A DNA stretch of 44,568 bases, taken from a virus. Taxonomy: Duplodnaviria; Heunggongvirae; Uroviricota; Caudoviricetes. Every line of letters begins with the position of its first letter. Position 1 is the first letter of the stretch. Position numbers and translations under genes: made by a program. The notes beneath the pieces were generated by a model. The model saw only the letters and a list, made by a program, of their open reading frames with translations, was not told the DNA's origin and searched no databases. Positions 9,552 through 11,165 of this stretch are shown piece by piece. The stretch lies in IMG/VR virus record IMGVR_UViG_2740892423_000027; one strand, given 5' to 3'.

Positions 9552-11165
9552 TTAAGCCTGGTTGTTAAAACTGGTGACCTGACGCTTGCCAGACTGGAAC
9601 GGCGCCCAGGTGACGGCGGGATCGCCTTCAAAGGTGCTGATCTGGCGACCGGTTGCATCGGCGCGCTTAATCTCGCGCAGCATACCGGGACCAACTGACA
9701 GGCTGGCCGCCTTCTGCGCATCAGCGTAGATATGCTTTTCGGCAGTGCTCAGCAGTTGAGAATCAGCGATAGCAGAGAGATCGACGGCTTTGTAGTCCGG
9801 AGAATGCTCCTGCAGTTGAATCATCAGACGGCGGCGATACGCCATCGGTTTTTCACCGGACAGCGGGATCGGGGCGCGTTTGCCAAAGCTGGAGAAGACG
9901 CTATCGGCTTTCACCTGCGCTTCTGCAACTTCGTTGCGCTCTTCGTCGCTCAGTTCGGTAGGAATGCGGGAGCGAAGCTCAGCAATTTCCTGGAGGATTT
10001 GAGAGTCGGCTTTTTCTTTTGCCATTTTCTCAGCCTCTTCGGCATCCGCCTTTTCTTTGGCTTCAGCATCAGCTTTTTCCTTCGCGGCTTTCTCTTCCGC
10101 GTCGGCTTTAGCTTTCGCCTCTTCCGCTTCTTTGTCTTCTGCGTCAGCCTTTTCTTTCTTGGCGGCCTCTTCGGCGTCAGCCTTGGCTTTCGCTTCCTTC
10201 TCTTCGTCGGCCTTAGCCAAACGCGCATCGATCGCCTTATTAATCAGCGCTACGATTTTTTCCTCGTCCATCTTTTCAGCCTCTTCAGGAATGGAATCAG
10301 ATTTAACACCGGTAGGGGCAAGGAGCTTGTCCCACACGCCCTGTTCACAAATTGCAACGTGGTCGAGCAGCTCGGGGGATGGCTCCACCAGTAGAGGCTG
10401 ACCGTCGACAATGATTGATTGAGCAACCTCTGAGAACTTCACAGTTGGCGAGGTGCTTAATTGCCTTGTTGCCATAATTTCAGCAGCTTCGGCGTCGTAC
10501 ACACGCGCAACGGCCCACACTTCGCCCTTATCGGCAACCCAGGCATTTGTCAGGGTGCCAATAACGCGCTTTGAGAACTCGTCGCTATCAAGTGTTCTTT
10601 TTTCGGGGTGAAGCCAGATAAGCGGTACGCCAGCTACCCGCTGGAGAAATTCAGGGGTGAGATAGTCGTCCGGGTTACGGAACGTCATCTCCTGATCTGC
10701 AGATCGCCAGGTAACCCCTGTTCCGGTCACCCGGATGGCGAACATCCACATGTTGTAAAAATATTGCGGGCTGCTGAGCGTTCCGTCAGCGATGAGCGCG
10801 GCCACGTCGGTTTCGTTGAGCGCCTGCTGCGCCAGCATTTCAGCGAATGGCTGATGAAGCGGCTTTGGCAGATCGTCAATATGGAACCATCCGGCGGCCA
10901 GCGATTCGTCGTTTATCTTCGCTTCGAATTGCTCCGGCACGTCGGCGCGGTAGGTCAGGTAGTCACCATGTACGCTGTGCGGCGTCAGCGGGCCATCGTA
11001 CTGATAGCCTGTTTCCTCCAGCACCTCGCGCCGTGCGGCGTCTATGGCTAACTCTCCCGGCTCTATCGTCCCGCCCGGCTGGCACCATGTGCCATCATCC
11101 GAGCGCTGGATCAGGAAGACGAACTTCCCCTGACGGAACATTATCCCGCTGCCAAAAATAGCCAC
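9552..11165 (-). CDS. Fusion protein: N-terminal Nudix hydrolase domain + head scaffold-like region with long K/E/A-rich coiled coil
   Basis: N-terminus carries a complete Nudix box ([24 protein letters not shown] fits GX5EX7REUXEEXGU); middle region resembles phage scaffold/protease-like domains; residues about 300-390 are repetitive [14 protein letters not shown] coiled coil; located between portal/morphogenesis and capsid genes. Confidence 0.6.

Follow-up and report, generated by a model that had tools for sequence, protein, structure and literature searches.

A Nudix domain joined to a prohead protease and scaffold in a temperate Klebsiella phage: a candidate passenger enzyme of the capsid

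We analysed a tailed phage sequence of 44,568 nucleotides (IMG/VR record IMGVR_UViG_2740892423_000027; this whole stretch of DNA is called the window below), focusing on the minus-strand gene at 9552-11165. Its open reading frame (ORF) encodes 537 amino acids (aa) and combines, in a single polypeptide, a Nudix hydrolase domain, a prohead protease and a scaffold. The evidence described below suggests that its product is a head-assembly polyprotein with three parts, belonging to a temperate Klebsiella myophage, in which the Nudix domain would be a passenger enzyme packaged into the head and injected into the next host. We assign to this reading a probability of about 50%.

The target region showed 99.4% DNA identity to Klebsiella phage vB_Kpn_Chronis (MN013086), where the counterpart of the ORF is gp4, annotated as “putative NUDIX hydrolase”, and 98.9% to Klebsiella phages RothC and RothD. 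These phages form a temperate group with contractile tails, placed in the proposed Felixviridae and common in the human gut (preprint 10.1101/2024.12.02.626457). Among the PHROGs, the ORF is a member of phrog_6216 (function unknown), which matches it over its full length (E 7e-246). The best 120 protein clusters are near-identical proteins (96-99%), one of which was seen on 514 contigs, chiefly Klebsiella genomes, and the relatives range from 537 to 541 aa.

Read from the sequence, the ORF initiates at a GTG codon with an AGGAG motif 9 nt upstream. The annotation of Chronis gp4, the conservation among homologues and the upstream AGGAG support the GTG at 11165 as the start. The forward polymerase chain reaction (PCR) primer “gp7” of KlebPhaCol coincides exactly with positions 11121-11141 (codons 9-15), implying an annotation that begins at the ATG of codon 9; in the KlebPhaCol preprint the gene appears only as a conserved “hypothetical / putative virion structural protein”, used as a PCR marker. 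This ATG has no ribosome-binding site, and its use would remove the first beta-strand of the Nudix domain, which is kept in divergent homologues. Since the homologue alignments begin at residue 2-5 of the target protein, the ATG of codon 9 is not the start.

The Nudix domain spans aa 1-115 (10821-11165, minus strand), as delimited by Pfam, AlphaFold2 and Foldseek. The Pfam NUDIX profile (PF00293) matched aa 9-112 with an E-value of 2.9e-16 and 60.1 bits, against a cutoff of 21.1 bits, a match well outside what chance would give. The Nudix box, 23 residues at aa 32-54 (11004-11072, minus strand), follows the pattern GX5EX7REUXEEXGU without exception when read from the sequence, with E38, R46, E47, E50 and E51 as catalytic residues. 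The 24-residue peptide quoted in a preliminary description of the locus, made from the letters alone, corresponds to aa 31-54. AlphaFold2 modelled the domain (aa 10-110) with a predicted local distance difference test score (pLDDT) of ~92, and Foldseek matched it with probability 1.00 to many solved Nudix crystal structures, all of which agrees with an alpha/beta/alpha Nudix fold. The preliminary description, which had placed a textbook Nudix box within the N-terminal ~110 residues, was thus borne out by profile search, by the alignment of ~138 clusters and by structure prediction.

The conservation of this domain was evaluated at two evolutionary scales. Among representatives of clusters at <=50% identity, R46, E47, E50 and E51 were kept in 138/138 Nudix-bearing proteins, and E38 in 137/139. 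Among 80 related IMG/VR loci, with 80-100% protein identity, the amino acid identity of the Nudix region was 84-98% per 10-codon bin (92-98% in most bins), despite varying synonymous sites. These patterns support an intact Nudix domain under purifying selection, and the retention of its catalytic residues speaks for a genuine function as an enzyme, with the activity itself predicted.

The middle of the protein, aa 116-292 (10290-10820, minus strand), is a DUF2213 domain with the prohead serine protease fold of assemblin and T4 gp21. The Pfam DUF2213 profile matched aa 159-276 (E 1.8e-5, above the gathering cutoff), and PHROG families annotated as “head maturation protease” matched aa 160-418. 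The candidate catalytic residues are H186 (10608-10610), S237 and S239 (10449-10457) and H269 (10359-10361), all on the minus strand. Across 150 representatives of the <=50%-identity clusters, His186, Thr238 and Ser239 were invariant, while Ser237 and His269 were each present in 149. The order His...Ser...His recalls the catalytic triad of assemblin. A profile search against the PDB sequences found no solved DUF2213 relative, returning chance matches only (E>0.5), and hhalign gave no signal between the DUF2213 alignment and T4 gp21 or P2 gpO; therefore the residue equivalences are not transferable and the fold match alone stands.

Based on Pfam and PHROGs, the minus-strand gene order is small terminase subunit (TerS), large terminase subunit (TerL), portal, MuF-like protein, the target gene, a 286-aa minor head protein, major capsid protein, connector, and then sheath and tail genes. 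The protease gene hence stands between the portal/MuF genes and the major capsid gene, from which a single gene separates it. Considering its fold, invariant residues and gene position, the DUF2213 domain is assigned as a prohead serine protease, with Ser237 or Ser239 as candidate nucleophile. Because its middle region has this fold, the target protein probably cleaves itself, and the fate of the Nudix domain would hinge on the cleavage sites.

The scaffold part begins with a helical, coiled-coil segment rich in lysine, glutamate and alanine at aa 300-398 (9972-10268, minus strand; 29% Ala, 23% Glu and 20% Lys), which contains five KADAE repeats and was modelled by AlphaFold2 as long helices at 301-335 and 358-398, with low confidence. 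Tandem Repeats Finder identified the DNA that codes for the KADAE repeats as imperfect tandem repeats with periods of 75 and 33 nt at 10053-10206. The sub-cutoff match of this segment to TolA (TIGR02794) was discarded as a low-complexity artefact of its composition, which also accounts for the “TolA protein” label in phage Rac-SA53, and the ORFs found over the repeats in alternative frames (e.g., 9950-10228 and 10057-10401) were rejected as by-products of GAA/GCN-rich repeats rather than genes. The segment is followed by a conserved C-terminal domain at aa 400-537 (9555-9968, minus strand), modelled as three helices plus a beta-hairpin (pLDDT 86-94), with Q417, D421, G437, E438, Y443, R444 and R446 as conserved residues; presumably it is with this end that the scaffold binds the capsid.

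The preliminary description had already noticed the fusion of the Nudix domain to a scaffold/protease-like region, the long K/E/A coiled coil and the location of the gene between portal/morphogenesis and capsid genes. All three observations stood, with the protease-like region now resolved as a prohead serine protease. The repetitive DNA, which it had placed at about 9950-10260, is the same feature in slightly narrower limits.

The boundary between protease and scaffold carries the marks of an internal start. A GAGG motif (10280-10283) lies 8 nt upstream of the ATG of codon 299 (10269-10271), the two together occupying 10269-10283 on the minus strand; an in-frame gene starting there would span 9552-10271 (minus strand) and encode the 239 residues from Met299 to Ala537. 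Met299 sits directly past the protease domain, in an otherwise variable linker. Among 137 residues aligned to it, from the 150 representatives, 116 were Met, 14 Val and 2 Leu, so that 132/137 are the residues of ATG, GTG and TTG. A Shine-Dalgarno-like motif (GAGG, AGGAG or AGGTG) was found from a few to ~8 nt upstream in the window and in the Yersinia, Pantoea, Shewanella and Rac-SA53 homologues, and it is kept in these five although the encoded peptides differ.

Then, we compared this site across the 80 IMG/VR loci. The ATG of codon 299 and the GAGG 8 nt upstream were present in 80/80, while the flanking codons vary. The synonymous entropy at codons 271-300 was 0.16-0.27, compared with 0.72 on average for the gene. 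In synonymous variation the stretch of codons 270-303 ranked 4th lowest of 503; comparable minima occur only at the first ten codons of the gene and at its last seven, the latter beside the start of the next gene. No promoter was found inside the gene upstream of Met299. The conserved Met/Val/Leu, the Shine-Dalgarno-like motifs, the synonymous minimum and the precedent of gp26/gp25 in Burkholderia phage BcepB1A lead us to infer that a nested 239-aa scaffold is probably made from Met299 besides the full-length protein. A conserved in-frame internal start with a ribosome-binding site at the protease/scaffold boundary is the arrangement of lambda C/Nu3.

To estimate the breadth of the family, we scanned 1.84 billion representatives of 50% identity clusters of which 566 matched at E<=1e-30; with the threshold relaxed to E<=1e-10 the number rose to 1478. 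The statement of the preliminary description that enzymatic fusions to scaffold proteins are unusual did not, for this family, survive this count, and such fusions have been published (Iyer et al. 2022, PMC9503650). A strict Nudix box was present in 125 of the best 150 representatives, 12 more differed at the last Gly only or by one inserted residue, with R-E-x-x-E-E kept, and 13 had no Nudix domain and started at ~residue 116; as the query included the Nudix domain, this ranking favours Nudix-bearing proteins and the fractions are not population estimates. The Nudix-less homologues include those of Escherichia phage Rac-SA53 and of an Actinobacillus phage.

The N-terminal region of these homologues is variable. 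An ADP-ribosyltransferase (ART) domain precedes the Nudix domain in P0350 (E 1.5e-19) and P0132 (E 2.2e-8), a PBECR1 RNase precedes it in P0360 and P0133 and takes its place in P0151, LPD3 lies upstream of it in P0154 and DUF5710 in P0251. The N-terminal extensions fell into eight BLAST clusters with no cross-matches, with the ART-Nudix-protease fusions in two separate clusters, and a genome scan for the DNA context of the ART-Nudix fusions returned only ART-less relatives. In general, an effector is joined to a protein of the head interior and its repertoire changes (ART, PBECR1, LPD3, DUF5710 or none), as expected for a cargo.

Furthermore, phages Bcep781, Bcep43, Bcep1 and BcepNY3 carry a related Nudix domain on the C-terminus of the portal protein. 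The portal Nudix of the Bcep781 type gave a match to the N-terminus of phrog_6216 at 2.7e-22, while T4 NudE falls in another PHROG; one Nudix lineage has thus been joined to two distinct proteins exposed to the inside of the capsid.

Three further features of the homologues were recorded. Many Burkholderia-type homologues (e.g., L002, 4857-6704) have a leader of ~45 aa before the Nudix domain, with consensus ...AMxAAAHGxSTLGIPxSVGxEFVxAD, which is absent from the window protein and which causes many N-terminal extensions, dissimilar in other respects, to group in a single BLAST cluster. The phrog_30637 profile (1119 positions; seen through L004 and L005) contains a portal region at the N-terminus and a DUF2213 protease near the C-terminus, which suggests that some phages encode portal-protease fusions. 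Lastly, the records “Shewanella phage vB_Sb_QDWS” (L002, OK094664) and “Hujiaoplasma phage zrk29-1” (OP650936) are both 47,902 bp long, with the same identity and score to the query, and the vB_Sb_QDWS protein is 100% identical to one attributed to Klebsiella pneumoniae and shares 86-92% identity with proteins from Burkholderia; the hosts given in these records appear doubtful.

The arrangement suggests the following course of events. The C-terminal coiled coil and end domain would act as internal scaffold, and this part, both alone and within the full-length protein, would co-assemble with the capsid protein, and a small share of subunits bearing the Nudix-protease head would thereby enter the procapsid in low copy number. 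After assembly of the shell, the DUF2213 protease would clear the scaffold; the compact, folded Nudix domain would likely survive proteolysis and stay trapped, or else be lost. Retained Nudix domains would leave the capsid along with the DNA at the following infection, and in the new host a handful of molecules could hydrolyse a nucleoside diphosphate-X (NDP-X) compound before phage genes are expressed. ADP-ribose (ADPR) or NAD-derived molecules would be the likeliest substrates, with cap-like 5' ends of RNA as an alternative.

The steps of this reading differ in strength. Entry of the Nudix domain into procapsids is likely, given its covalent link to assembly proteins of the head interior; here the interpretation of the preliminary description, a Nudix enzyme incorporated into procapsids, holds in that an intact domain sits on such proteins, while the probable self-cleavage and the nested scaffold gene had escaped it. 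Retention in the virion and ejection are possible. The substrate class is weakly indicated, and we lean towards NAD/ADP-ribose chemistry because ART-Nudix fusions exist. The reading of the domain as capsid cargo fits both the effector domains found in the same N-terminal position and the Nudix on portal C-termini, and a low copy number would suit enzymes (ART, RNase, Nudix) rather than stoichiometric binders. Among well-studied phages, the N-terminal fragment O* of P2 gpO remains in mature capsids, and T4 packages and injects Alt and its internal proteins.

Several observations weigh against the proposal of a packaged and injected enzyme. For Nudix domains fused to head proteins, the literature yielded neither a virion proteome nor a cleavage map, and no enzymology or genetics; the virion proteome of phage 7-7-1 was considered and set aside, as it concerns an unrelated HK97-type protease. 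The resident protease could degrade or release the Nudix domain, and the portal-tethered Nudix of Bcep781 would not be ejected unless cleaved, leaving room for a function within the head or in the cell that makes the phage. As regards the substrate, the nearest solved structures in Foldseek mix NudC, MutT, diadenosine tetraphosphate (Ap4A) hydrolases and CDP-Chase at similar scores, RppH scoring alike; since the candidates score alike and the NCBIfam matches are all far below cutoffs, we did not name a substrate from nearest structures or curated families. BLASTP similarity to T4 NudE covers only 34 residues around the Nudix box. T4 NudE belongs to phrog_1185, which matches the target at 1.5e-6 over aa 21-56 only, while phrog_1198 is the best Nudix PHROG of the target. 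A proline ~16 residues past the Nudix box is said to have been described by Dunn et al. in 1999 as the signature of ADP-ribose pyrophosphatases; in the target this proline is absent at +16, where Leu70 is found, with prolines at +5 and +8 and tyrosines at +15 and +18. Neither feature places the domain in the T4 NudE-like / ADP-ribose pyrophosphatase subgroup. Lastly, a second gene linked to NAD or ADP-ribose is absent from the window.

A different explanation confines the action of the Nudix to the late phase of infection in the producing cell, where it might for instance clear ADPR, NAD-derived signals, alarmones or damaged nucleotides; the fusion would then serve late co-expression, and the Nudix would be cut off or degraded at maturation and be missing from the virion. 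The protein carries its own protease, and in HK97 and T4 the prohead protease undergoes self-digestion and exits the capsid; the failure of the literature to yield evidence of Nudix in virions is also coherent with this view. However, a covalent fusion is unnecessary for co-expression, the same Nudix clade is fused independently to the C-terminus of the portal and to the N-terminus of the protease-scaffold, and the same slot holds ART and RNase effectors that would be harmful if free in the producer. We thus regard a role restricted to the producing cell as doubtful, albeit worth serious consideration.

Alternatively, the Nudix could be packaged and act in the new host on RNA 5' ends, by NudC-like NAD decapping or by RppH-like conversion of triphosphate to monophosphate, speeding the decay of host mRNA instead of targeting immune nucleotides. 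E. coli NudC is the top Foldseek match (5iw5, E 9e-8), BdRppH and BsRppH are among the matches, the weak NCBIfam matches include RNA pyrophosphohydrolase, and Nudix enzymes of poxviruses and other large viruses decap host mRNA (PMC9503650). On the other hand, MutT, Ap4A hydrolases and CDP-Chase score as well, the NCBIfam matches are all far under cutoffs, the 115-aa domain lacks the extra domains of NudC and the ART-Nudix fusions point to NAD/ADP-ribose chemistry. An action on RNA ends thus appears unlikely.

Still less probable is a function inside the assembling head, where the Nudix would remove ADP-ribosyl or nucleotide adducts placed by host defences on head or packaging proteins, or would gate the protease by nucleotide sensing. 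The portal-tethered Nudix of Bcep781-type phages would sit at the packaging vertex, and for head-associated ARTs Iyer et al. raised the possibility that they counter immunity aimed at packaging components; yet no host modification of head proteins of such kind is known for these phages, and the natural Nudix-less homologues evidently assemble heads, which makes the domain dispensable for assembly. Finally, that the Nudix is a vestigial or purely structural N-terminal appendage, as its dispensability in some lineages and its absence from 13 of the top 150 representatives might suggest, is hardly credible: all the catalytic residues of the box are kept in ~138 divergent clusters, the 12 sequences missed by the strict pattern deviate solely in the last Gly or through insertion or deletion of a single residue, and the domain is under strong purifying selection over synonymous divergence.

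The proposal of a packaged Nudix can be extended to the whole family. The N-terminus of the DUF2213 protease-scaffold might be a general slot for loading cargo, with Nudix as its commonest occupant; a few tens of molecules per capsid would be injected with the DNA and would destroy ADPR-derived immune signals or related NDP-X compounds before phage transcription, forming a class of virion-delivered anti-defence enzymes. This generalisation is tentative, and we hold it to be less probable than the reading of the single gene from which it departs. If true, this anti-defence class would be widespread in gut Klebsiella prophages and soil Burkholderia phages. If the Nudix is packaged and injected, the enzyme would be active at DNA entry, when nucleotide-signalling and NAD-depleting defences threaten most, and the protease-scaffold, an essential and abundant head protein, would double as a delivery vehicle. 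The idea is directly testable in Chronis, RothC and RothD, temperate phages that are available in culture and occur commonly in Klebsiella of the human gut. A possible use would be the loading of chosen enzymes into therapeutic phage capsids.

The genes around the target, all on the minus strand, are coherent with a head module. Upstream lie the MuF-like head morphogenesis protein (11178-11999; phrog_324, E 4.5e-29) and the portal protein (11996-13411; Pfam Phage_portal_3, E 2.2e-20; phrog_146). Downstream, the 286-aa protein (8676-9536; phrog_6268, function unknown) contains in its C-terminal part a region, aa 165-239, that resembles domains of “virion structural” and tail-fibre proteins in PHROGs. 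Its label “endosialidase” in Pantoea phage PdC23 received no backing from Pfam or PHROG searches, and neither did the label “glycosyl transferase” used in Yersinia phages; for the 286-aa protein a minor head or decoration-type protein seems more likely than an endosialidase. The major capsid protein follows (7631-8662), matched by phrog_6671, by phrog_264 (“major head protein”) and weakly by Pfam Major_capside. Further along the same strand, a 627-aa tail protein (941-2824) has a tape-measure-like region and a C-terminal lytic transglycosylase domain; Chronis gp14 is annotated as “putative lytic transglycosylase”.

Elsewhere in the window, two adjacent tRNA genes, Thr-TGT and Asn-GTT (17785-17940, minus strand), lie between the Q-antiterminator and the lysis genes. 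A homologue of ClpP-like SDH/NfeD-type serine proteases (25893-26795, plus strand) directly follows the CI-like repressor (25062-25769; helix-turn-helix and Peptidase_S24), an unusual neighbour for an immunity region, with no match in PADLOC. Similarity to known phages ends at ~33.94 kb, just past the excisionase and attachment (att) region, and the remainder (33940-44568) looks like a P4-type satellite. It contains an integrase (34063-35397), assignable to either element, a primase-helicase with Zn-ribbon, Toprim and DUF927 (38199-40871), and two tandem Psu-family genes of Sid-like and Psu-like size (41272-42015 and 42012-42563), followed by a small regulator (42560-42841). At the edge of this element, a stretch with 37% GC holds a 487-aa ORF (43105-44568, minus strand; phrog_18195, function unknown), for which PADLOC gave only short, weak matches at the C-terminus. 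Defence genes that vary between elements are known as cargo of P4-like satellites, close to their psu end; position and composition therefore make this ORF a candidate cargo gene.

The combination of protease and scaffold in one frame is well known from lambda C/Nu3, Mu I/Z and P2 gpO, with lambda and Mu also making a shorter scaffold from an internal start. In P2 gpO an assemblin-type protease is N-terminal and the scaffold C-terminal, whereas the lambda C protease is of ClpP/SppA type and not of the assemblin fold. Unlike the target, none of these proteins has an extra enzymatic passenger. The relationship to proteases of the same fold is remote: T4 gp21 and herpesvirus assemblin share 9-15% sequence identity with the DUF2213 domain, and hhalign detected no sequence-level similarity of the target to P2 gpO or T4 gp21.

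The closest annotated parallel is gp26 of Burkholderia phage BcepB1A (“head maturation protease, COG3566”), in which a Nudix at the N-terminus is followed by a DUF2213 protease and, at the C-terminus, a scaffold, and inside which an in-frame nested gene, gp25, is annotated as “scaffold protein”. The gene neighbourhood is also the same, with a portal-like protein, MuF, the protease-scaffold gene, a small virion protein and the capsid gene. The differences are an overall identity of 26%, the assignment of gp26 to PHROG 3778, the virulent lifestyle of this soil phage, and a serine motif STH instead of STSP. The polyvalent and MuF-fused effectors (Iyer et al. 2017, PMC5512222) and T4 Alt similarly combine an anchor in a head protein with variable catalytic effectors; here, in contrast, the anchor is the N-terminus of the protease-scaffold and not MuF, and the window protein has a single passenger. 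Neither DUF2213 nor “scaffold” occurs in the text of that paper.

Iyer, Burroughs, Anantharaman and Aravind (2022, Viruses 14:1977, PMC9503650, section 3.5.2) described, on computational grounds, the fusion of Nudix domains to MuF, portal and capsid-processing serine peptidase, and proposed their packaging and injection. Our case shares with theirs the association of Nudix and capsid-processing serine peptidase, the late head gene cluster and the contractile-tailed phage, as well as the view of a head-packaged enzyme injected against NAD/ADPr-based host responses. It differs in that their paper assigns these domains to a T4 NudE-like clade, while the similarity of the target to NudE is limited to the box and its best PHROG is 1198 and not 1185. 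Both the architecture and the idea of packaging were hence already known, from annotation and from a published prediction, and the gene is a correctly recognised member with a predicted function. The nested scaffold start at Met299 and the residue-level assignment of the protease come from the present analysis and not from Iyer et al. 2022, and to them we add the fold-level identity of DUF2213 as a protease, the size and catalytic conservation of the family and the variability of its effector slot.

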